Shown here one piece after another: positions 3,613 through 46,800 of a stretch of DNA of 64,000 nt (position 1 is the stretch's first letter; each line of letters starts with the position of its first letter). The notes below the pieces were generated by a model. That model worked only from the letters and a program-made list of their open reading frames with translations, was not told the origin of the DNA and searched no databases. The DNA is from an uncultured Porphyromonadaceae bacterium. Lineage in GTDB: Bacteria > Bacteroidota > Bacteroidia > Bacteroidales > Muribaculaceae. The stretch covers positions 830 through 64,829 of the forward strand of contig CALBWF010000043.1 in assembly GCA_937969265.1 (NCBI GenBank), written 5' to 3'. A program made the position numbers and the translations under genes.

Positions 3613-3987
3613 ATGGCAGACATCAAAGCTCTTGCAGAATCTTTAGTTAACCTCACCGTCAAGGAAGTAAACGAACTCGCTACCATCCTCAAAGAGGAGT
3701 ACGGCATCGAACCCGCCGCAGCCGCAGTCGCTGTAGCAGCAGGTCCCGCCGCTGGCGCACCCGCCGCAGAAGAGAAGACCGCCTTCGACGTAGTCCTCAA
3801 GAACGCCGGCGCTTCCAAGCTCCAGGTTGTCAAGCTCGTCAAGGAGCTGACCGGTCTTGGCCTGAAGGAAGCCAAGGAAATGGTTGACGGCGCGCCCAGC
3901 GTCCTCAAGGAAGGCGTTGCCAAGGCTGAGGCTGAGGATCTCAAGAAGAAGCTCGAAGAGCAGGGCGCTGAGGTAGAGCTGAAATAA
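3613..3987 (+). CDS. rplL: 50S ribosomal protein L7/L12
   Basis: Ala-rich hinge ([20 protein letters not shown]) and C-terminal domain [19 protein letters not shown]. Confidence 0.98.
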
Positions 3988-4030
3988 GCATCCCCTCGCC
4001 AGGCACCCTCTTCTGCTTTGAAGAGAAAAC

Positions 4031-4069
4031 GGTTAAGCGACCGGGCTTGTCCCGGACGCTTAACCTTTT
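4031..4069 (+). terminator. Attenuator-type hairpin between rplL and rpoB
   Basis: Stem GGTTAAGCG / CGCTTAACC enclosing a second stem CCGGG/CCCGG, followed by TTTT. Same position as the known partial terminator in the enterobacterial rplKAJL-rpoBC cluster. Confidence 0.55.
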
Positions 4070-4195
4070 CCGTTTATAAAGCGGGGCGTTAACAAAGTTT
4101 CCGCAACTTTCCGAAAGTTTAAGAAACTTTAACGGCGCTTAACGGCCCGCGCCCCGCCAGAACAAACCGATAGCTATCAACAATTCATTTTATTG

Positions 4196-8008
<3,813 letters not shown>

Positions 8009-18946: not shown

Positions 18947-19972
18947 ATGCGGCCCCGGCCTGTCGTTTTCCCTCGGACGCGGAAGAATCCTGATTTCTTG
19001 TCCCGTGCCCGCTGGCACGATTATCGCTCGCGATGCATATATATGGTGACCTTGTCGGCGGCGGAAGGCTCGCCCAGGTTTTCCGAAGTCATAGGCTGGG
19101 CCAATGCTGAGGGAATCTCAGCGGGTGTCAGGCTCCTGCCCGCAGGGGCATTGATTGAAAGGGAAATTGTTCGGTTGCCGGAACGCTACCCGGTCGTTAA
19201 GGTGCTGGCCCATTGCGTGATGTCGGACCATCTGCATATCGTTATATTCATCAAAGAACGGACAGAGACAAGTCTGCCCCGGATTGTCGCCGCCTTTGAG
19301 GCCGGGTGCACCAAAGCGTTTCGGGAAAGTTTCCCGGATTCGCGGTTGTCCCTGGCCGGAGGAAGCCTGTTTGCCAAAGGGTTCAACGACAGGATAGTGC
19401 GGGGCCGGGGAGAGGCAGATGCTTTCTGCCGGTATGTTGAGGATAATCCGAAGCGATATTATCTTCGGAAAAACCACCCCGAATATTTCGACCGCTGCCG
19501 GATTATAACGGTAAACGGTCGGGAACTGGCAGCATACGGGAATCTGTTGTTGCTCCGCCATTGTGTCAAGTGCGCGGTTAAAGTCAGCCGGTCGCTGACT
19601 CCCGAAGAGACAGTCGGCTGTGAAAGAGCCTGGAGCGAGACCATTAGGAGCAGGGGCGTGCTTGTGTCGCCGTTTATAAGTCAGGGGGAGAAAGAGGTAT
19701 TCCGCGAGGCAGTCGAAGGAGTGGCTGGCATAATCCATATTCTGCCCAATGGCTTTCCCGAGCGGTTCAAGCCTTCTGGCAGAGAGTTTGAACTTTGCGC
19801 GGCCGGGCGGTTGCTTTTAATCGCGCCTGTCGAATACGATACCAGGAGAGCAGTTGTCTCGCGGGAGCAATGCCTGGCGATGAACGAGCTGGCGGCGCTT
19901 GTCGCCGCCAACGGCCTGAGCCTGGCGGTCAGGCGGGAGCCGCGCTCTGGTTCAAACCGCGCCGCTCGCTAA
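18947..19972 (+). CDS. HUH/Y1 (IS200/IS605 TnpA / RayT-like) transposase-like protein with unassigned C-terminal extension (341 aa), copy Y1a
   Basis: HUH motif SDHLHIVIF and Tyr-helix motif FCRYVEDNPKRYY. Paralog of 30178..31167. Followed by a family palindrome. Confidence 0.8.
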   Translation: MRPRPVVFPRTRKNPDFLSRARWHDYRSRCIYMVTLSAAEGSPRFSEVIGWANAEGISAGVRLLPAGALIEREIVRLPERYPVVKVLAHCVMSDHLHIVIFIKERTETSLPRIVAAFEAGCTKAFRESFPDSRLSLAGGSLFAKGFNDRIVRGRGEADAFCRYVEDNPKRYYLRKNHPEYFDRCRIITVNGRELAAYGNLLLLRHCVKCAVKVSRSLTPEETVGCERAWSETIRSRGVLVSPFISQGEKEVFREAVEGVAGIIHILPNGFPERFKPSGREFELCAAGRLLLIAPVEYDTRRAVVSREQCLAMNELAALVAANGLSLAVRREPRSGSNRAAR

Positions 19973-19974
19973 AG
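19957..19974 (+). repeat. 18-nt partial copy of the palindrome arm (CCGCGCCGCTCGCTAAAG) covering the Y1a stop codon
   Basis: Identical to 20001..20018. Confidence 0.85.
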
Positions 19975-19999
19975 GGCAATGCTCGCCGCTAACAGCAAA

Positions 20000-20159
20000 C
20001 CCGCGCCGCTCGCTAAAGCTCGCTCCACCCGACAGGCTGCGCGTTCTTTATCCTCTTGTTTTCTCCCTCTCCCCTCCTTCTCTTCTTCTTTTTCCTCTTT
20101 CTCCTTAGCCTTTCGCGCGCAGCCTGTCGGGTGGAGCGAGCTTTAGCGAGCGGCGCGGG
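20000..20159. repeat. Foldback palindrome HP1: perfect 44-bp arms (20000-20043 / 20116-20159), 72-nt pyrimidine-rich loop
   Basis: The reverse complement of the left arm, checked base by base, equals the right arm. The loop is almost pure C/T on the + strand. Confidence 0.95.
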
Positions 20160-21453
20160 GGCGGTTGGCGGCGCGGGGGTAGAGGAGGGTCTGGAGGGCG
20201 CCGCGGGCGAAGAGGTAGGAGATGAAGGCGAGCCAGAGGGCGTGGTTGCCGAGGGAGGGGAAGAGGAGGTACTGGAGGAGGAAGAAGATGGCGGAGGCTC
20301 CGGCCATGCTGAGCAGGAGGGGGCGCGTCAGGGTCGCGCCGATGTAGACCCCGTCCCAGACGAAGGCCCCGAAGCCGCAAATGGGGATGCTGACGGCCCA
20401 CAGGGCGTATTCGCGGCTCGCGGCGAGCACGTCCCGGTCGGAGCTTAGGATGCCGAGAAACGATTCTCCGCCGAGAAAATATATGGCTGTGAAGACCAGT
20501 GCCAGGGCGAGGCCCCAGCGCATCGTGGCCTTTATCATCGCGTCGAGGCTGCGGCGGTCACGGGCCCCGGTGAAACGCCCGGCGAGGGCTTCGGCGGCGA
20601 AGGCGAAGCCGTCCATGACATAGGAAAAGAGGAGGAAGAGCTGCATCAGCAGGGTATTGACTGCGAGAATCACGGAGCCTTGCGAGGCTCCGGCGCGGGT
20701 GAACCACATCGTGACGGCCATAAGGCATACCGTGCGCAGCATCACGTCGAAGTTCACTTTGAAGAAGCGCCGCAGTTCCTCCCATCGCGCGATTTCCCTC
20801 CATCCGCACCGTTGCAGCCGGTAGCGCCGCAGAAACAGCAGTGAGACGGCCAGCCCGACCCATTGCGCTGTCAGCGTGCCGCACGCTATCCCCGGAATCC
20901 CCATCCGCAGGGCGTAGACGAGCGTCAGGCTCGCGGCGATGTTCGACAGGTTTACTGCCAGGGATGTCCACATCAGCACCCGCGAGTTCTGCATGCCGAG
21001 AAACCAGCCGGAGAGGGCGTAGGTCCCCAGCATCGCCGGCGCGCCGTAAATCAGAATCCTGAAATACTGCCTCGCGAGCGCCTCGGCTCCCGCGTCGGGC
21101 GACGCGAGCCACAGCAGCCCGTATTCCAGCGGCCGTTGGAGAAGGATAAGCGCCACGCCCGCTCCGAAGGCTACCAGCAGCGAGCGCCGCAGAATCAGCG
21201 ACTGGGCGCGGGTGTCGGCGGCTCCGCAAGCCTGCCCCGCGAGGCCCGAGGTCCCGGCGCGGAGGAAGGAGAAGAACCAGTAGACCATGTTGAACATGAC
21301 GCTCCCCACGGCGATTGCGGCAAGAAACACGGCGCTCCCCATATGCCCCGCGATGGCCGTGTCGACCAGCCCCAGGAGGGGCGTGGTGATGTTGGCCGCG
21401 ATGGAGGGTATGGCGAGCGCCAGTATTTTCCGGTTAAGGCCGGAGAGTTTCAT
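20143..21453 (-). CDS. MATE family efflux transporter (436 aa)
   Basis: N-terminus KILALAIPSIAANITTPLLGLVDTAIAGHMG and 12-TM-like hydrophobic profile. The last codons lie in the HP1 right arm. Confidence 0.9.
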   Translation of the reverse strand: MKLSGLNRKILALAIPSIAANITTPLLGLVDTAIAGHMGSAVFLAAIAVGSVMFNMVYWFFSFLRAGTSGLAGQACGAADTRAQSLILRRSLLVAFGAGVALILLQRPLEYGLLWLASPDAGAEALARQYFRILIYGAPAMLGTYALSGWFLGMQNSRVLMWTSLAVNLSNIAASLTLVYALRMGIPGIACGTLTAQWVGLAVSLLFLRRYRLQRCGWREIARWEELRRFFKVNFDVMLRTVCLMAVTMWFTRAGASQGSVILAVNTLLMQLFLLFSYVMDGFAFAAEALAGRFTGARDRRSLDAMIKATMRWGLALALVFTAIYFLGGESFLGILSSDRDVLAASREYALWAVSIPICGFGAFVWDGVYIGATLTRPLLLSMAGASAIFFLLQYLLFPSLGNHALWLAFISYLFARGALQTLLYPRAANRPRAAR

Positions 21454-30177: not shown

Positions 30178-31167
30178 TTATAACGCCGCTCCGCGTACCG
30201 AAAGTGCCAGCTCTCCGGCGGCAATCTCCTCCGCGAGCCGGTTCATCGCAAGGCACGTTTCCCTCGAAACGGTCTGTCGGCGGCAGCTTGTCACGGTTGG
30301 CGAGACAATCAGAAGCCTCCCCTCGGCGCATAGGTCGAAGTCGCGGCCCGAGGGCTTGAACCGCTCCGGGAAGCCGTCAGGCACGATATGGATAACGCTC
30401 GCTCCGGCTTCCAACCCCTTGTCGCGCACGGCTTTCTCCGGTTTGCTGATGAAAGGGGAAACGATAACGCCACGCCCGCGCATAACCTCTTCCCATTCGC
30501 TGTACCGGCGCCGCGTTTCCTCTTCGGAGAATGTGCGGCTGAGCCTTACGGCGCTTGTCAGGCAGTGGCGCAGAAGGAGGAAGTTGCCGAAGGCGTTATA
30601 TTCCTTGCCGTTGATTAGCAGCGTTATGCGCCTATTGAAAAATTCCGGGCGAGTCTGTTTGAGGTAGAGCCTTCGGGGATTGTCGGCGACATAGCGGTTG
30701 AAGTTGTTGAGCTGCCCCTCTTTGTAGACAATGCGGTCGTTGAACCCCTTGGTGAAAACAGAGCCGGATTCCCGCAAAACCGGCAGGTCGGGGAAAGCCT
30801 TCTGTATCTCTTTGTCGCAAAGCTGTTTGAGGGAGCCGACGATGTGGCCGAGGTCGATGTTCGTCTTCTCCTTTACGAAGATTACGAAATGGATATGGTC
30901 CGGCATCACTACGCTGCTGAGAATGTCGGCGAACGGGTAGCGGACATGCAGTGCTGAGACGCGGGAAGCGATGATTTCTCCAACCGGGGTAGGAACAGCC
31001 CTCGCTTCCGCTCCCTGAGGCCCGATATTCCCTTCGATTCTTGAAAAGCGGGGAGCTCCCTTCGCCGCGGTAATGGTAAACATGTATATCCGGCGGCCGT
31101 AATAGTCGTTCCAGGACGCCCGCGCCAGGAAATCCGGATTTTTGCGGCTGAGGTAGGGAGAGGGCAT
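30178..31167 (-). CDS. HUH/Y1 (IS200/IS605 TnpA / RayT-like) transposase-like protein with unassigned C-terminal extension (329 aa), copy Y1b
   Basis: HUH motif PDHIHFVIF and Tyr-helix motif FNRYVADNPRRLY. Collinear with Y1a over its full length (RKNPDFL, KGFNDRIV, LLLRHC, VSPFIS, GFPERFKPSGR, CLAMN). Confidence 0.8.
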   Translation of the reverse strand: MPSPYLSRKNPDFLARASWNDYYGRRIYMFTITAAKGAPRFSRIEGNIGPQGAEARAVPTPVGEIIASRVSALHVRYPFADILSSVVMPDHIHFVIFVKEKTNIDLGHIVGSLKQLCDKEIQKAFPDLPVLRESGSVFTKGFNDRIVYKEGQLNNFNRYVADNPRRLYLKQTRPEFFNRRITLLINGKEYNAFGNFLLLRHCLTSAVRLSRTFSEEETRRRYSEWEEVMRGRGVIVSPFISKPEKAVRDKGLEAGASVIHIVPDGFPERFKPSGRDFDLCAEGRLLIVSPTVTSCRRQTVSRETCLAMNRLAEEIAAGELALSVRGAAL

Positions 31168-31237: not shown

Positions 31238-31386
31238 GGAAGCCGCTCGCCTTCGGCTCGCTCCACCCGACATTCGGGGACAGGAGTTACGGGAGCCTGG
31301 CGAATAGGCAAGGAAGAGAAAGGGAGAAGGAAGGGGAACAGGCGTATTGGATGTTGGGTGGAGCGAGCCGAAGGCGAGCGGCTTCC
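31238..31386. repeat. Foldback palindrome HP2: 36-bp arms (31238-31273 / 31351-31386, 35/36 paired), 77-nt loop purine-rich on + strand
   Basis: Reverse-complement check done by hand. Shares GCCGCTCGC and GCTCGCTCCACCCGACA with the HP1 arms. Confidence 0.95.
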
Positions 31387-31440
31387 TATTGCCGTGCTTC
31401 CTATTGCCGTGCTTCCTATTGCCGTGCTTCCTATTGTTGT
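31381..31440 (+). repeat. 15-bp tandem repeat GCTTCCTATTGCCGT, 3 perfect copies plus 1 degenerate
   Basis: Read directly. The first unit overlaps the end of the HP2 right arm. Confidence 0.95.
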
Positions 31441-40819: not shown

Positions 40820-43800
40820 TCAGAAGCGGACTTTCCAGGCGCGGTTGGCGGCGCGGACGATGTAGAGCCCGGCGGGGAGGGCGATTTCCTCCTCGGTGTA
40901 GGAGGGAGCGAGGTAAACCATCCTGCCGTCGGCGGAATAGACTTCTATGCGCGCCCCGCAAGCGTTCCTTACGATATAGCCGTCCGGGGTCTTGACAAGA
41001 GTGTAAGCCGAAGGAGCGTTGACGGTATCGATACCGCTCATGTCCTTGACGGTAAGGACGCAGGTCGCTTCCGCGTTGCCGTCGGCGCTGCGGACAGTGA
41101 TGGTCGCGGTGCCCTCTTTCAGGCCGGTTACCAGGCCATCGCCGTCAACATCAGCCACGCTGACATCCGAGCTTTCCCAAACCAGCGCCTGATTGGTGGC
41201 GTTCGCGGGGAGTATGGTCGCCGACAGTTGCAGCGTTGAGCCGACATTCACCTCAGCTTCGGTGGCATTCAACTCTATCGCGGCAACCAATACGGCTGAC
41301 ATCTCCTCAACGAAGAAGAAATCCTTCCATTGCGGAGCGGCTCTATATTCGTCGCTGCTCTCTGCGGGAACATAAAGCGCACATTCCCACTTGTTTATGT
41401 CATCGAGCGCCTGGTTGCCGCAGACAGGAGGAACGATGGAATAGGAATAATACTTGGTAAGCCCGGTGCAGTCGGAGAACGCCTCGTCGCCGATGCTCTC
41501 TACGTTATAGCCTGCCGAGAAATAGTCAAGCGAAGAGCAGCCCGAGAAAGCCCATTTGCCAATCTTCTTGACCCCGTTGCCGATTTTCAGCGAGTTAAGA
41601 CCCGAGCAGCCGTAAAATTCGTTATCGTAAATCTCGGTTTCCGCATCCGTTATCTCCACTGTCCGCAGCGAGGTGTTGCGGTAGAACGGCGAATAACCAT
41701 AATTGGAACCAGTCTTATATGACAGCTTGCGACCGATATACACCTCGTCAAGCGGGCAGTCGGCAAACAGCGGGCTTGAGCCGTTGGAACCCAATGTTAT
41801 ATAAGCGGTATTAATAGATGAAGCTCCTTTTAGCCAAATATCGGAGACGACAACCCGGTCTTGCCCGGAATTACTTGACGAATCTTTGGTGTAAGAGAGG
41901 TACAAGGTTATTTGGCCGGCCTCGGAGAATTGATAACGAAAACTGTCTGATTTCTTGCCGCTTGCCTTTATTGCCTCCGAGCCATTGATTTTCGCAATGA
42001 AGAAATCATATCCGGATTCACTATCTACCGAATAATTGAATGTTAGAACGGCTCCAGCTTTCGCATCAAGCAGGTATTCCTGATGTGATTCAGAATTGTC
42101 TGCGTGGTTTGATGACGTCCAATCGGGATATTGTATGTTTGTCGGTTCTTCGATTTCGGGTGCTTCCTTATCATCGTCTTCAATAGAGATGTCGGAGAGC
42201 GACGAGCAACCCTCAAATGCGTAATCTGAGATGGAGGTTACATTGTTCGGTATCGAAATTGATTCAAGCGAGGAGCATCCCGAAAAGACTTTTGTAGGCA
42301 GCGAGGGGAAGCCTGCCCCGAGAGTGGCGCTTTTCAACGCGCTACACCCCTGGAATGCTGAAGCGCCCAAAGAAGTTACGGAATTAGGAATAACGATTTC
42401 GGGAATTGCTGAGCATCCGTAAAATGCGTTTTCGGAGATTCCGGTAACCTCATTTCCAAGTTTTACTTGGTTCAGCGCTTTATCATTGTAAAACGCGCAT
42501 TCTCCGATATTTCCCTTGTTCTCGATAGTTGCGGTTTGCAATGAAGTGCATCCGTAGAAAGAAGAGTTTCCTATATTTCCTGTGTTTTTGATGGTAGCCG
42601 TCTGCAAGGCGGTACAACCATAGAAAGCGGAGCTGCCGATACTTCCATTATTTGCAAGAGTGACAGTTTGCAGACTTTCGCATCCTTGGAAAACATCCTC
42701 TCCGATATTACCATTGTTGGAAACATTAGCAGTCAGAATCTTGCTGCAATTACGAAAAGCATCATTGCCAATATCCCCTTTGTTTGAAGCTGTTAGCGAT
42801 GTTAAATGCCCGCAATTATAGAAAGCGTAACTTCCTACGAAGCCAATATTAGAAAGGGTTAGCGATTCAATGTTGCTGTTGTTGTAAAATGAGTATTGTC
42901 GGATATTATTTACCGTCATCTCAATGCCTTTGTTGGTAACTTTATCAGAAATGACTGGTGTGGTATAAGTGGGGTTATAAAGGCAGTCTACGACATCGCA
43001 AGTGCGCTCCGAAGGGCTGACGGGGACATAAATTGTTCCATCAACTGTGAATTTGGAGCTGAGGAACTGATATTTGATTTGATTGTTCAGGTTGTATTGG
43101 TCATTAGACACATAGTTTACATATGCGTTAACTTCTCCATAACCGGATGGAGGGGTATTCCCTAACCAAAAAGCCTTGGCGATTCGATGGTTATTGCTTG
43201 TAAAGGCGTATGATCCGATAGAAAGAAGTCCTGAGCCGAATGTAACAGATTTTAATCTATTTTCATAAAAGGAGCGTTCACCGATAGAGGTGACGGAGTT
43301 GGGGATTGTTAGACCCTGAATCTTGCTGCCGTTGTACAGGAAGTAATCGGGAATCTTGGTGACATTGTCGCCAATCGTCAGGGAAGAGATAGACGAGGGG
43401 AAAGCGGGATAATAAGAAGAGCCGCAAGTTGCGCAGTTTGTAGCATTGAAAGCGAGGGATTCGAGGGAGGAGCAGTCCCTAAAAGCGTAGCCCCCGATGG
43501 AGGTTACGGCGTTGGGGATTACGACGGATGTCAGGGAGGAGCATCCGTCGAAAGCGTAGTCGCCGATGGAGGTTACGGCGTTGGGGATTTCGACGGAGGC
43601 CAGAGAGAAACAGCCGAGGAAAGCGCTTTTGCCGATGGAGGTTACGGCGTTGGGAATTACGACGGAGGCCAGGGAGGTGCAGTGGGCGAAAGCGCCGAAG
43701 CCGATGGAGGTTATTGTGTTTGGTATAGTATAGCCATCCGAAAGGGTCATTGGAGCGTAATATACCTTTGTGATGTCTTTATCATAAATTACCCCTGCTT

Positions 43801-44647
43801 CATCTATAAGGCAATCAGAGGGGTATGCGATTTTGAAACCAGAACTGAATGGGTTACTTATTGAAGAAGGATATGCGCTCTTTTTAAGGCCGCTACAGCC
43901 GTAGAAAGCGTCGTCGCCGATGGAGGTTACGGAGTTGGGGATTACGACGGATGCCAGGGAGGAGCAGCCGTAGAAAGCGTCGTTGCCGATGGATGTTACG
44001 GAGTTGGGGATTTCTACGGAGGCCAGGGAGGCGCAGTTACGGAAAGCGTAGGAGCCGATGGAGGTGACAGAGTTAGGGATTGAGAGATTCTGAATCTTGC
44101 AGCCGTTGTACAGGAAGTAATCGGGAATCTTGGTGACATTGTCGCCAATCGTCAGGGAAGAGATAGACGAGGGGAAAGCGGGATAATAAGAAGAGCCGCA
44201 AGTTGCGCAGTTTGTAGCATTGAAAGCGAGGGATTCGAGGGAGGAGCAGCCGTAGAAAGCGTAGTTGCCGATGGATGTTACGGAGTTGGGGATTTCTACG
44301 GATGTGAGGGATGAGCAGTAGTAGAAAGCGTCGTTGCCGATGGATGTCACGGAGTTGGGGATTACGACGGAGGCCAGGGAGGCGCAGTATCTGAAAGCGT
44401 CGTGGCCGATGAAGGTTACGGCGTAGGTTTTGCCGTTATATTCAACTGAAGATGGGATTATGACAGAGCCGCTATATTCATTTGAGTATGAGTTATAAGA
44501 GCTGCCGCGAAAAGTTACGGCGGCGGTGTTGTCGGATGAGGAGGTGATGTCGTAGTAGATGCCGTCGACTTCGAAGTCGTGGGGGGAGGCGGCGAGGGTG
44601 GCGGTGAGGGCGAAGGGGAGGAGGAGTTTTCGCAAGAGGGGTGACAT
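40820..44647 (-). CDS. BspA-type leucine-rich-repeat surface protein with Big_2-like domain and T9SS C-terminal sorting domain (1275 aa)
   Basis: Start set at MSPLLRKLLLPFALTATLAASP (signal peptide). Dozens of IPNSVTSIG..AF..C.SL repeats. Big_2-like LNATEAEVNVGSTLQLSATILPANATNQALVWESSDVSVADV. CTD ending LYIVRAANRAWKVRF. Confidence 0.88.
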   Translation of the reverse strand: MSPLLRKLLLPFALTATLAASPHDFEVDGIYYDITSSSDNTAAVTFRGSSYNSYSNEYSGSVIIPSSVEYNGKTYAVTFIGHDAFRYCASLASVVIPNSVTSIGNDAFYYCSSLTSVEIPNSVTSIGNYAFYGCSSLESLAFNATNCATCGSSYYPAFPSSISSLTIGDNVTKIPDYFLYNGCKIQNLSIPNSVTSIGSYAFRNCASLASVEIPNSVTSIGNDAFYGCSSLASVVIPNSVTSIGDDAFYGCSGLKKSAYPSSISNPFSSGFKIAYPSDCLIDEAGVIYDKDITKVYYAPMTLSDGYTIPNTITSIGFGAFAHCTSLASVVIPNAVTSIGKSAFLGCFSLASVEIPNAVTSIGDYAFDGCSSLTSVVIPNAVTSIGGYAFRDCSSLESLAFNATNCATCGSSYYPAFPSSISSLTIGDNVTKIPDYFLYNGSKIQGLTIPNSVTSIGERSFYENRLKSVTFGSGLLSIGSYAFTSNNHRIAKAFWLGNTPPSGYGEVNAYVNYVSNDQYNLNNQIKYQFLSSKFTVDGTIYVPVSPSERTCDVVDCLYNPTYTTPVISDKVTNKGIEMTVNNIRQYSFYNNSNIESLTLSNIGFVGSYAFYNCGHLTSLTASNKGDIGNDAFRNCSKILTANVSNNGNIGEDVFQGCESLQTVTLANNGSIGSSAFYGCTALQTATIKNTGNIGNSSFYGCTSLQTATIENKGNIGECAFYNDKALNQVKLGNEVTGISENAFYGCSAIPEIVIPNSVTSLGASAFQGCSALKSATLGAGFPSLPTKVFSGCSSLESISIPNNVTSISDYAFEGCSSLSDISIEDDDKEAPEIEEPTNIQYPDWTSSNHADNSESHQEYLLDAKAGAVLTFNYSVDSESGYDFFIAKINGSEAIKASGKKSDSFRYQFSEAGQITLYLSYTKDSSSNSGQDRVVVSDIWLKGASSINTAYITLGSNGSSPLFADCPLDEVYIGRKLSYKTGSNYGYSPFYRNTSLRTVEITDAETEIYDNEFYGCSGLNSLKIGNGVKKIGKWAFSGCSSLDYFSAGYNVESIGDEAFSDCTGLTKYYSYSIVPPVCGNQALDDINKWECALYVPAESSDEYRAAPQWKDFFFVEEMSAVLVAAIELNATEAEVNVGSTLQLSATILPANATNQALVWESSDVSVADVDGDGLVTGLKEGTATITVRSADGNAEATCVLTVKDMSGIDTVNAPSAYTLVKTPDGYIVRNACGARIEVYSADGRMVYLAPSYTEEEIALPAGLYIVRAANRAWKVRF
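43316..43475 (-). repeat. Intragenic ~159-bp direct repeat, copy 2
   Basis: Differs from 44090..44249 at a single position. Confidence 0.9.
44090..44249 (-). repeat. Intragenic ~159-bp direct repeat, copy 1
   Basis: See 43316..43475. The offset of 774 bp is in frame. Confidence 0.9.
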
Positions 44648-45057
44648 TGGGTTGGTTCGGTGCCGCGGGACTCCTCTCGTTGGCGTTGGGGGTTGGAGAC
44701 GGAAAGACGTGGGAGTCTGTACTGCTGCCGTCCCACCGTCAGAGGCTTCTCGCATTGCCTATACCCGTCGGACGGCAACGCCAGAAGCCCACGCCAGTAT
44801 ATGCAACGGACGCTTGCGGCGGGTTCCTCACGAAACGGGCCGCGGCGGATGTTACACACCAACGGGCATCTACCGTTGCTCAATCCTTGACGGGCTGGGA
44901 AATTTTGCGAGAATTTCTGACGGTCAAGAACTAAGCGTTAGTAACGCCTTTCATATTTGCCGCGGCGGGGGCGCAGGGCCTCCGGGCGGTTGTCGCATCC
45001 CTCCCGCTCGCCCACACCGAACTAACTGGCGCGGGGCGGCGTTGCGGTCTGCGTCGG

Positions 45058-45130: not shown

Positions 45131-45190
45131 GTAATCCGTGTTAATCTGTCGCATCCGTGGGGAGCTTGCGACCATAAAAATCTGTGTGTC
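45131..45190 (-). repeat. Repeat R1, truncated inverted copy B'
   Basis: The reverse complement equals the first 43 nt of copy B exactly, then continues imperfectly. Confidence 0.9.
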
Positions 45191-45194
45191 AACC

Positions 45195-45310
45195 ATTTTT
45201 ATTACGCGACCTCTCCGAGGCCGTTTTCATCCACGACCAACAAACACCGCACCTTCGCGGCTTCGCCGCTCGATACGGTGCTACAATTACGCCGCGGCTT
45301 CGCCGCTCCG
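45195..45310 (-). repeat. Structured repeat X, copy B (inverted relative to copy A)
   Basis: Block-wise homology to 40465..40580 after reverse complementing. Confidence 0.8.
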
Positions 45311-45336
45311 AAATATAGGGGATTGGATGCGTCTGA

Positions 45337-45553
45337 CACACAGATTTTTATGGTCGCAAGCTCCCCACGGATGCGACGGATAAACACTGATCTTTGAGAG
45401 GGATGCTTTCTACCACGGTCCCGCACCCTACGGGCGCTCCTCTCTGGGTCTGCCACTTCCACCGCGCCTCGCCTCTCCGAGGCTCGACACGGTGTTACTC
45501 ACGGACACGCACCCTCCGGGCGCTCCATACGGATGCGGCAGATATACACGGAT
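45337..45553 (+). repeat. Repeat R1, copy B (with internal ~85-nt duplication/insertion)
   Basis: CACACAGATTTTTATGGTCGC and CTCCCCACGGATGCGACGGATAAACAC are identical to copy A. GCACCCT(A/C)CGGGCGCTCC occurs twice. Confidence 0.9.
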
Positions 45554-45676: not shown

Positions 45677-46594
45677 TCAGTTGTGGCGGGTGAGGATGCC
45701 GTCTTCGAAGATGAGGTAGCGGCCGTCGGGGTAGGACCAGCGCTCGTAGGCGGTGGAGTGGGAGCGGCCGCGGTCGATTTCGGAAGTGGGGCCGAGGGCG
45801 AGGCGCGCCTCGGTGCGGGTCATGCCGTTCGTGATTCGCGAATCGCAAATCAGGGCCCAGTGCTCGTCGGAGATTTCGGGATAGCGGCGGCGCGGGTCGG
45901 TGAAGGAGAATAGGGAGTCGAAGCTGCGGGAGGTCGCGGCGCCTGGGCTCATCAGCAGCTCGCCCCGCTCTCCGTCGGCCGCGGCGAAACGAACGCGGAG
46001 GGGGTGGGTGGCGTTGCCGGGGAGGACGGCCTCGATTGTGACGGGGATGAATTTGCGGCCGCGGGTATATGACTCTTCCGCGGGGTTGTTCCATAGGTTT
46101 GTGCGGAGGTAGACGCGGCGTCCGGCGAGGGCTTTGTCGACGTTGTCGACAAACCGGGAATCAATAAGAAAGGGGATTTCGGGGGGCGCGGGGCGCTCGA
46201 GGAGCGTCGGCAGGGGGATGGAGGAGGTGTTGACGAGGGTGTCACCCGCGGGGTTCGCGAAGAGGAATTCCGCGACCGAGTCGCCGAGGACCCACACGCG
46301 TTCCCTCGCGCCGAGGTAGCGCAGTTCCGTTCCCGAGGCTATTGTCGGGGAGCCGGCGAACCCTTTCCCGGCCTGCGGACCGGCGGCGGTGAAGAGGTCG
46401 CCCGGATGCCACTGCCGCAGGGGCCTGGGTGCGAATGTTTCGGCGAGGCGCTGTTCCTCCGAGACCGCGGCGTTCTGCTTCTCGACCTCTTTATAGGTGA
46501 TTTTCGGGGTCGATTCAACGCCGGTAAAGCACCCGGCGAGGAGTATCGCGGGCGCGGCGAGGATGAGTATATGTCTGAGGAAGCGCTTTGTCAT
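45677..46594 (-). CDS. Hypothetical lipoprotein (305 aa)
   Basis: Start set at MTKRFLRHILILAAPAILLAGC (lipobox). ATGA overlap with the upstream small gene. Confidence 0.75.
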   Translation of the reverse strand: MTKRFLRHILILAAPAILLAGCFTGVESTPKITYKEVEKQNAAVSEEQRLAETFAPRPLRQWHPGDLFTAAGPQAGKGFAGSPTIASGTELRYLGARERVWVLGDSVAEFLFANPAGDTLVNTSSIPLPTLLERPAPPEIPFLIDSRFVDNVDKALAGRRVYLRTNLWNNPAEESYTRGRKFIPVTIEAVLPGNATHPLRVRFAAADGERGELLMSPGAATSRSFDSLFSFTDPRRRYPEISDEHWALICDSRITNGMTRTEARLALGPTSEIDRGRSHSTAYERWSYPDGRYLIFEDGILTRHN

Positions 46595-46800
46595 TTCTTT
46601 TCGCGGCGGCGCTGCGCGCGGAGGAGGTTGAGGCGCAGAAGCCAGATGCAGAGCAGGGTTACGGCTATCCCGCCGAAATAGAGGGTCGCGGAGATGCCTC
46701 CGGCGCGGTAGTTGGTCCATCCGAGGACGGCCATCACCACGAGGTAGATCAGGAGGAGGGCCGGGATGATTACCGGGCGTGTCAGAAATCGGTTTTTCAT
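46591..46800 (-). CDS. Small two-TM membrane protein (69 aa)
   Basis: Two hydrophobic helices and a basic tail. ATGA overlaps on both sides suggest translational coupling. Confidence 0.6.
   Translation of the reverse strand: MKNRFLTRPVIIPALLLIYLVVMAVLGWTNYRAGGISATLYFGGIAVTLLCIWLLRLNLLRAQRRREKK

Follow-up and report, generated by a model that had tools for sequence, protein, structure and literature searches.

Organization of the Y1a locus

The stretch of DNA analyzed here, referred to as the window, comprises 64,000 nucleotides of an uncultured Porphyromonadaceae bacterium (Muribaculaceae in the GTDB lineage; contig CALBWF010000043.1). It contains a gene, Y1a, whose product of 341 amino acids (aa) combines an HUH/Y1 nuclease domain with a C-terminal domain of predicted DprA-like fold, and which is followed by a long perfect inverted repeat (foldback 1). 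A second gene of the same two-domain type, Y1b, adjoins a related repeat (foldback 2), and we interpret these genes and repeats as a probable counterpart of the RayT/REPIN pairs. The features concerned are listed below with their positions in the window.

18947-19972, plus strand: Y1a gene, 341 aa, Y1 HUH nuclease and predicted DprA-like domain (open reading frame, Pfam Y1_Tnp)
19034-19489, plus strand: Y1/HUH catalytic domain, aa ~30-181 (conserved residues, Foldseek matches to TnpA/TnpAREP)
19229-19231, 19235-19237, and 19433-19435, plus strand: codons of His95, His97, and the catalytic Tyr163
19493-19936, plus strand: predicted DprA-like Rossmann domain, aa ~183-330 (predicted structure, Foldseek)
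19957-19974, plus strand: solo partial arm CCGCGCCGCTCGCTAAAG, an 18-nt copy of the outer arm, encoding the C-terminal AAR and the stop codon of Y1a
20000-20043, unstranded: left arm of foldback 1, pairing with the right arm at 44/44 positions
20044-20115, unstranded: loop of foldback 1, 72 nt, pyrimidine-rich on the Y1a sense strand
20116-20159, unstranded: right arm of foldback 1, holding the stop and the last codons (PRAAR*) of the MatE gene
30178-31167, minus strand: Y1b gene, 329 aa, two-domain like Y1a (tblastn, query residues 1-329)
31238-31386, unstranded: foldback 2, arms 31238-31273 and 31351-31386 (36 nt, 1 mismatch), loop of 77 nt
31381-31436, unstranded: perfect 15-nt tandem repeat, 3.7 copies, beginning within the outer end of the right arm of foldback 2

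The catalytic domain of Y1a

A preliminary description of this DNA had recognized an HUH motif (SDHLHIVIF) and a helix with the catalytic Tyr (FCRYVEDNPKRYY) in the 341-aa open reading frame (ORF). Both are present exactly as described, and the proposed HUH/Y1 fold of the N-terminal half is borne out by Pfam, by comparison of the family profile with the sequences of the Protein Data Bank (PDB), and by Foldseek. The Y1_Tnp domain (PF01797) is matched by aa 84-167 with 32.6 bits at a gathering score of 23, and the best NCBIfam model is REP_Tyr_transpos (NF047646; 38.8 bits for a cutoff of 80). Residues H95, H97, D148, Y163, and N167 are invariant in 118 aligned relatives. An AlphaFold2 model of Y1a, calculated with the family alignment as input (pLDDT 93, pTM 0.86), places Y163 on a helix formed by aa 156-176. 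The Y motif reads RYVEDNP, and the Y-x-x-x-Q motif of the IS200/IS605 enzymes is not present. Among PDB sequences, the family profile matches ISDra2 TnpA (E 4e-5) and the TnpAREP entry 4er8 (E 4e-3), and Foldseek matches the N-terminal half of the predicted model to ISDra2, IS608, IS200, and TnpAREP at E values from 1e-5 to 6e-4, with a probability of 1.0 and target-normalized TM-scores (TMt) of 0.58-0.73. The lowest root mean square deviation of these matches is that to TnpAREP 4er8 of E. coli, with 3.3 A over 155 columns.

The C-terminal domain

The extension of ~150 aa that doubles the size of the protein relative to TnpA/RayT had been noticed before and left without assignment to a domain; it is now assigned as DprA-like by structure prediction. 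Modeled alone, residues 181-341 reach a pLDDT of 93.5, and a Foldseek search of the PDB with this model gives 14 top matches which all belong to the DprA family, namely ShosA (8zva) and the DprA proteins of H. pylori (HpDprA), S. pneumoniae (SpDprA), and R. palustris (RpDprA). These matches have probabilities of 0.99-1.0 and query-normalized TM-scores (TMq) of 0.47-0.52 (ShosA 8zva: E 2.7e-4, TMq 0.52) and are followed by a sharp drop, the next match having an E value of 0.16 and a probability of 0.15. The C-terminal half is also placed on DprA proteins if the model of the whole protein is used. DprA/Smf and ShosA are Rossmann-fold recombination mediators of the SLOG type, which bind single-stranded DNA (ssDNA).

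On the level of sequence, the relation is faint. The sole non-transposase match of the family profile among PDB sequences is a weak one to residues 25-74 of HpDprA (E 0.1-0.5), in which a V-S/H-R motif of the family is set on the G-S/T-R motif of DprA containing Arg52; the Arg is mostly conserved. The ssDNA-binding motifs of DprA are described as G-S/T/A-R and F/L/Y-x-x-R-N/D (PMC3950713), and the second one (F-x-x-R-N) could not be placed in the domain. No Pfam family, including DprA (PF02481), matched the C-terminal half of Y1a or of 25 family members, and the domain shows conserved motifs of its own, SPFIS-x-x-EK, ER-x-KP-x-G, and C-L-x-M-N. As judged from the predicted structure, the extension is a divergent DprA-like Rossmann domain, which refers to the fold and not to membership in PF02481.

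A profile of the C-terminal domain returned many proteins of 130-280 aa. Such entries matching the DprA-like half alone (P0121-P0240) may represent truncated gene calls, and free-standing proteins of this type are not claimed here: P0193 (190 aa), which was inspected, is a truncated call of a full-length gene, and at positions 3647-4573 of locus L211 a competing minus-strand ORF call shortened the full-length gene to 190 aa.

Family size and inheritance

In a search of 5.8 billion proteins, 389 relatives of Y1a were found after clustering at 90% identity, nearly all of them 290-380 aa long and covering ~90% of the query. A hidden Markov model search of 1.84 billion representatives at 50% identity yielded 1,052 proteins at E<=1e-30. 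Few of the relatives are named, the labels being "transposase" or "hypothetical protein," and the named ones derive from metagenome-assembled genomes (MAGs) of Muribaculaceae, Duncaniella, and Bacteroides. Muribaculaceae are a more likely host group than the Rikenellaceae assumed in the preliminary description.

The gene order S41 peptidase, Y1, MatE, and OPT is kept in L001, L202 (a Muribaculaceae MAG), and L002, whose Y1 proteins share 90, 85, and 72% identity with Y1a. For these three orthologs, dN/dS values (Nei-Gojobori) of 0.12, 0.08, and 0.13 were obtained at dS values of 0.45, 1.1, and 1.6, respectively, the DprA-like half being more constrained than the nuclease half. Further syntenic ortholog pairs are represented by L013/L016 and L025/L028; non-orthologous members are found in unrelated neighborhoods with no conserved partner gene, and the 90%-identity clusters of relatives each occur on 1-2 contigs. 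These sequence comparisons indicate that Y1a is a resident, vertically inherited host gene under purifying selection, not a mobile one. The earlier view that this is no canonical IS200/IS605 element is therefore supported, because the gene is syntenic across species, is under purifying selection, and lacks an accompanying TnpB.

The foldbacks and their arm cores

Foldback 1 begins 27 nt after the stop codon of Y1a and consists of two 44-nt arms around a 72-nt loop. Its description as a perfect inverted repeat is correct, since all 44 positions of the arms are complementary. Folded as ssDNA, it has a calculated energy of -69.4 kcal/mol (z = -12.9, 200 shuffles). It lies between Y1a and the convergent MatE gene (20143-21453, minus strand) and spans the stop codon of the latter. 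Together with the solo partial arm, it makes arm sequences encode the C-termini of both proteins (...NRAAR* in Y1a and ...NRPRAAR* in MatE). The repeat has evidently rewritten the 3' ends of these two host genes, because the MatE tail departs from that of the L002 ortholog immediately after LYPR. No target-site duplication is present at the ends of either foldback of the window, which is in keeping with Y1 and not with DDE chemistry.

The preliminary description had also stressed that the palindrome is much longer than classical REP hairpins. The length is ordinary, however, once REPINs are considered, which consist of two inverted REPs flanking a spacer (PMC3116915, PMC3337134). The layout of the 160-bp foldback is the same, two inverted units plus a spacer, so that it is of unremarkable length for systems of this class.

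Y1b, which lies ~10 kb from Y1a, is 50% identical to it (159/319 residues, E 2e-116 by BLASTP). The two are assigned to separate orthogroups, that of Y1b comprising P0011/P0014/P0007, and constitute two diverged paralogs inside 12 kb. Y1b is also encoded on a 63-kb contig of the same organism in an index of gene positions, from which the exact Y1a protein is absent. Foldback 2 lies 68-70 nt upstream of Y1b, and pyrimidines prevail in its loop on the sense strand of Y1b, as they do in the loop of foldback 1 with respect to Y1a. Both foldbacks adjoin a Y1 gene and have an arm core of CCGCTCGC-N4-5-GCTCGCTCCACCCGACA in common. The 17-mer GCTCGCTCCACCCGACA recurs at 31256 and 31352 within foldback 2, and its 4 occurrences in the window at <=3 mismatches compare with 0.39 expected. 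The tandem array at 31381-31436 is also present in an independent assembly (L203).

The anticipated co-occurrence of the palindrome family with homologs of the protein is observed beyond Y1a itself, near the 50% identical paralog in the window and, in other genomes, near homologs that are 85, 72, and 49% identical. Foldbacks adjoin Y1a, Y1b, P0003, P0005, and P0010, the last of these at a non-syntenic locus. Twelve arms from six genomes share a core of ~28 nt, although the adjacent proteins are 49-90% identical; aligned, the core reads GCCGCTCG-CT-NNN-GCTCGCT-CC-AC-CC-GAC-AGG with 16 invariant columns, and each arm of the window lineage contains two direct GCTCGCT repeats.

The arrangement of the repeats differs between orthologous loci. 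The foldback of L202 occupies exactly the position seen in the window, but its arms pair imperfectly (5 mismatches) around a loop of unrelated sequence. In L002, the complete foldback is found upstream of the gene, unlike the downstream position in the window and L202, together with a truncated 3' copy (one arm and 17 nt from the beginning of this loop) that overlaps the stop codon; an overlap of an arm with the stop codon of the Y1a ortholog is found in L202 as well. Neither L202 nor L002 retains the loop of foldback 1, and that of L001 starts similarly. The window and L001 share a duplication of the outermost 18 nt of the arm; the contig of L001 terminates within the foldback loop. The 49% identical homolog in L003 occupies a different locus and is accompanied by a foldback with 47-nt arms 37 nt downstream of its stop codon, and L211 carries a 12-nt mini inverted repeat (TCGCTGAAGCTC / GAGCTTTAGCGA) with the same core just upstream of the gene. 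An intergenic solo arm was found in L149, a locus from a further Muribaculaceae genome; a Y1 gene was not detected within its 8 kb, which reach just ~0.86 kb on one side of the arm.

Taking all long inverted repeats in 54 loci (662 kb) together, 9 of 18 fall within 200 nt of Y1 genes, a space which makes up 3.9% of the sequence; a crude binomial estimate gives p ~1e-8 for this clustering, and an estimate with a fairer, intergenic-only background p ~0.004. Gene-flanking repeats were seen in the window (twice) and in L202, L002, L003, L006, L011, L013, L016, L025/L028, L205, and L211.

The pattern CTCGC-N4-5-GCTCGCTCCAC was searched in 185,579 species genomes; the matches listed include chance occurrences in high-GC genomes, L149 is the only one of interest among them, and homologs of the protein are not encoded at any of these loci. 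The exact 17-mer has two matches in viral contigs, which are attributed to chance because they lack any arm context. A search for a universal flanking motif, by 8-mer enrichment and a relaxed core expression, recovered the close lineage and L211 only. Several contigs with the loose pattern, one of them with two matches, belong to the Acidobacteriota MAGs OFTM223 (L091, L093, L122) and OFTM268 (L130-L132, L164), which hints at an unrelated repeat family there.

Repeats next to more distant homologs

Homologs with 30-44% identity to Y1a are flanked on both sides by other units, each composed of a REP-like hairpin and a short tail (L011, L013, L016, L025/L028, L205):

L011: GTTATCGGCCGAGCTCGGCCGATAAC, then CCGAC
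L013/L016: GCGAGCC-AGA-GGCTCGC, then AATACCYCGACA
L025/L028: CAAGCGAT-GGA-ATCGCTTG, then GAACGG
L205: GCGCC-TGTTA-GGCGC, then TCCAC

The distant members carry different hairpins, or none detected. Additional repeat copies are found in L028 and L205 at distances of 3-8 kb from the gene, and those of L028 show compensatory substitutions in their stems. In three independent lineages, tandem duplications abut one foot of a hairpin, namely at 31381-31436 in the window (15 nt x 3.7), at 9860-9940 in L205 (17 nt x 5), and at 9760-9805 in L028 (~20 nt x 2). They are perfect or near-perfect, and each unit corresponds to the sequence immediately beside the foot. These duplications may have been left behind by recurrent cutting and resealing, or by slippage at the hairpin.

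Other hairpins were noticed within or near genes of this type. L028 (10283-10301) and L025 (1208-1226) have their own REP-like hairpin CAAGCGATGRAATCGCTTG inside the Y1-DprA coding region, just after the HUH motif, and these genes are 50-90 codons longer; the arrangement resembles the insertions of REPs into tnpAREP genes reported for subclass 2.4 (PMC6006769). In eight metagenome loci (L056, L057, L063, L065, L066, L068, L077, L078), GTAG-tagged hairpin pairs (e.g., TGTAGGGGCGG...CCGCCC) occur ~145-156 nt apart inside the protein-aligned region. These loci match just the Y1 half (~150-170 residues) and probably represent subclass 2.4 of Quentin et al. (PMC6006769). A perfect inverted pair with 33-nt arms of the classical GTAG-type REP (CCAAATTGTAGGGACGCACGGCTCGTGCGTCCG) is located at 2489-2584 of L003, 7.5 kb from the Y1-DprA gene, and two different repeat systems may coexist in this genome, which also encodes P0010.

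Elsewhere in the window, an inverted repeat (ATCCGTGTTAATCTGTCGCATCCGTGGGGAGCTTGCGACC...) unrelated in sequence to the Y1 foldbacks, with 58-nt arms of 95% complementarity, 142 nt apart, is found at 45134-45391, apparently between large ORFs at 40820-44755 and 45677-46720 (both minus strand). Rfam at gathering thresholds identified three tRNAs only in the window and nothing at the foldbacks, and the GC skew across the window tracks gene orientation, giving no usable signal for the direction of replication.

Interpretation and alternative explanations

We propose, with a probability of roughly 60%, that Y1a and Y1b are domesticated RayT-type HUH/Y1 nuclease-ligases combined with a DprA-like domain, and that the foldback represents their cognate repeat, equivalent to a REPIN. 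This reading is based on the intact Y1 center, the vertical inheritance of the gene, the lineage-specific repeats hugging it, the turnover of these repeats, and the lack of target-site duplications, a combination of features that serves as the defining signature of RayT/TnpAREP-REP systems ("REPtrons"; PMC6006769, PMC3116915, PMC3337134). The REP/RayT-like unit with atypical architecture of the preliminary description is thereby retained and refined to a RayT/REPIN-like pair with a Y1-DprA fusion.

From the fold and its catalytic residues, the mode of inheritance, the recurrent, lineage-specific pairing of the gene with its repeat, and the way repeat copies are rearranged between orthologous loci, we infer how the protein may bind, cleave, and mobilize its substrate and what the DprA-like domain may contribute. 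The cognate element would consist of two inverted recognition sequences of ~28-40 nt around a freely evolving spacer. Whenever the region becomes single-stranded, e.g., as lagging-strand template, the two arms would pair to a long hairpin, of which the Y1 domain may recognize the arm core GCCGCTCGCT-N3-GCTCGCTCCAC-CCGACAGG. Cleavage at or near the foot of the hairpin by Tyr163 and the HUH-bound metal would then be followed by strand rejoining, and the foldback would be copied, moved, or truncated, mostly near the gene. The DprA-like domain might hold the flanking ssDNA, dimerize the enzyme, and/or recruit RecA. The perfect 44-nt arms (compared with 5 mismatches in the 85% identical ortholog), the duplication of 18 nt of the arm, and the tandem duplications at the feet are consistent with repeated local cut-and-rejoin events or with templated repair.

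Several observations weigh against this proposal. About 40 of 53 loci have no detectable adjacent repeat, among them those of P0012 and P0013 with 48-50% identity, and the arm core was not found away from Y1 genes in the 64-kb window or in 20-kb flanks of L002, L003, and L016, whereas REPs are characterized above all by numerous copies dispersed over the genome. No folding of individual arms is seen for the window, L002, and L003 (z -1.1 to +1.3), in contrast to the arms of L016 (z -4.3) and L205 (z -3.5), and the GTAG/CGTC tag of classical REPs is absent from the arms, which have a common ..AC-CCGACA tail instead. The score of Y1a with REP_Tyr_transpos is far under the cutoff of that model. 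Finally, the DprA-like assignment depends on a predicted structure with a TM-score of ~0.5 and 18-20% identity, with just one of the two ssDNA-binding motifs of DprA being alignable.

A different and rather unlikely explanation would regard the foldback as an ordinary intergenic structure, such as a bidirectional transcription terminator or an mRNA-stabilizing hairpin between convergent genes, or as an autoregulatory operator, which the protein neither cuts nor moves. It would fit the extreme stability of foldback 1, its position exactly between the convergent Y1a and MatE genes including both stop regions, and the occurrence of window-lineage copies only beside Y1 genes in the DNA examined; moreover, the two direct GCTCGCT repeats per arm could form a binding site in duplex DNA, and effects on termination and mRNA stability have been ascribed to REPs in other systems (PMC3733652). 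However, the stem is not followed by a T-run on either side, the positions of foldback 2 and of the L002 copy are upstream of the gene and not at its 3' end, and the solo arm of L149 is intergenic, with no Y1 gene detected in its locus. The position and number of copies also vary between orthologous loci, truncated or duplicated arms occur, and a pure repressor would need neither invariant HUH and Tyr residues nor a nuclease domain under purifying selection. In its everyday role, the foldback may still act as a terminator or operator, but this would leave the conserved catalytic residues and the copy turnover unexplained.

Still less probable is a role of the protein as a host factor for processing of, or conflict with, incoming, conjugative, or phage ssDNA, to which the link with hairpins would be secondary, e.g., as substrate mimics. 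The C-terminal domain is indeed closest in structure, ahead of the DprA proteins, to ShosA, which provides the DprA-like part of the ShosTA anti-phage system (PMC12961424). Moreover, the family is a large one whose gene is conserved as a host gene, and many members lack a detectable flanking repeat. Yet no defense model of PADLOC matches Y1a or Y1b, a conserved partner such as a ShosT-like toxin is missing from the neighborhoods, which differ between non-orthologous loci, and lineage-specific flanking repeats are a signature of the RayT type (PMC6006769).

That the gene and its flanking hairpins form an autonomous IS200-like insertion sequence, with the foldback or its arms as subterminal ends, is highly improbable. 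The Y1_Tnp domain, the repeat copies on both sides of the gene in L002, L013, L016, L011, L025/L028, and L205, and the arm that reaches into the 3' end of every Y1a ortholog would be accounted for in this way. They are outweighed by the occupation of the same site between the S41 peptidase and MatE genes at dS values of 0.45-1.6, by the restriction of each 90% cluster to 1-2 contigs instead of many, and by the 50% identity of the two window copies, which would be expected to be near-identical. The protein is also twice the size of IS200 TnpA, scores 12.7 bits with transpos_IS200 (NF033573) at a cutoff of 55, and no hairpin structure is present in the 15-nt gap between the start of Y1a and the preceding gene. 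Scarcely credible, finally, is a miniature inverted-repeat transposable element moved by an unrelated DDE transposase and located beside Y1 genes by chance, which would match the size (~150-160 bp) and the long terminal inverted repeats of the foldbacks, but not the missing target-site duplications at both copies, the repeated association of a common core with homologs at syntenic and non-syntenic loci, or the solo arms and arm-plus-loop fragments overlapping the stop codon in orthologs.

Within the RayT/REPIN-like reading, a more far-reaching and unlikely version would have the Y1-DprA protein couple the nicking of hairpins to the capture of ssDNA and the loading of RecA, thereby starting site-directed recombination or gene conversion at the foldbacks instead of plain cut-and-paste. 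This would explain the homogenized 44-nt arms, the tandem duplications at the feet, and the shuffling of repeats around the gene, and if it were true, the large family (at least 1,000 clusters, from gut Bacteroidales) would constitute an unrecognized class of structure-guided recombination initiators.

Comparison with known systems

Among transposases that persist together with their miniature repeats as long-term, vertically inherited residents of genomes, those of the RayT/REPIN systems have been studied best. To our knowledge, these systems have been reported almost only from Proteobacteria and Cyanobacteria and with small single-domain enzymes. The present family would extend their logic to gut and rumen Bacteroidales and to an enzyme with an added DprA-like module. 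The fusion of this module to a Y1 nuclease appears to be new, no description of a Y1/HUH transposase fused to DprA or SLOG having been found in the full-text literature at incomplete coverage. It suggests a mechanistic link between the nicking of hairpins by HUH enzymes and the functions of recombination mediators, which is directly testable because the protein is small, its model is confident, and the candidate substrate is narrowed to a core of ~28 nt. In addition, a handle is gained for annotating hundreds of unannotated genes and the adjacent long palindromes that break assemblies, as in L001.

The closest resemblance is to RAYT/TnpAREP, which is likewise a vertically inherited Y1 HUH protein encoded at a single locus, with a Y motif like that of class 2 (Y-x-x-x-N-P) and with lineage-specific palindromic repeats that flank its gene without target-site duplications, the foldback here having the layout of a REPIN. 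The proteins described here differ in being about twice as long through the DprA-like C-terminal domain, in having GFND in place of the tryptophan motif, and in belonging to Bacteroidales and not to Proteobacteria; the repeat arms of the window lineage are no hairpins and lack GTAG/CGTC. Their combination of DH[LVI]H, RY[IV]xDNP, and ~320 aa fits none of the 12 subclasses of TnpAY1 (PMC6006769). Subclass 2.6 is similar in occurring in Bacteroidetes and in being flanked by atypical structures with possible copies elsewhere, but is characterized by NH[LIV]H, YIH[QN]NP, and a median length of 179 aa, whereas subclass 2.3 (325 aa, large C-terminal domains, no REP) is similar in length and has a conserved C-terminal extension, but contains NHYH, YVDLNP, and insertions in the core, and derives from Chromatiales/Alteromonadales (PMC6006769). 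Neither subclass is reported with a DprA-like domain, and DprA or Rossmann folds are nowhere mentioned in Quentin et al. 2018 (PMC6006769).

The TnpA proteins of IS200/IS605 elements (IS608, ISDra2) share the predicted catalytic fold and, by extension, the HUH/Tyr chemistry (Foldseek E 1e-5), and presumably also the recognition of hairpins in ssDNA. Y1a differs from them in not being a multi-copy mobile gene, in lacking Y-x-x-x-Q and TnpB, in its extra domain, and in the absence of a pair of left and right subterminal hairpins around it in the window. With DprA/Smf and ShosA, the common ground is the fold of the C-terminal 150 aa (probability 1.0, TMq ~0.5) and the N-terminal stretch G-x-x-x-L-L-x-x-P-x-K-x-x-V/I-x-x-S/T-R of the domain, which includes the equivalent of Arg52 in motif 1. 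The domain is, however, smaller (~150 compared with ~205 aa), has no match to PF02481 and no identifiable motif 2, and its partner is a nuclease in place of SAM or winged-helix domains.

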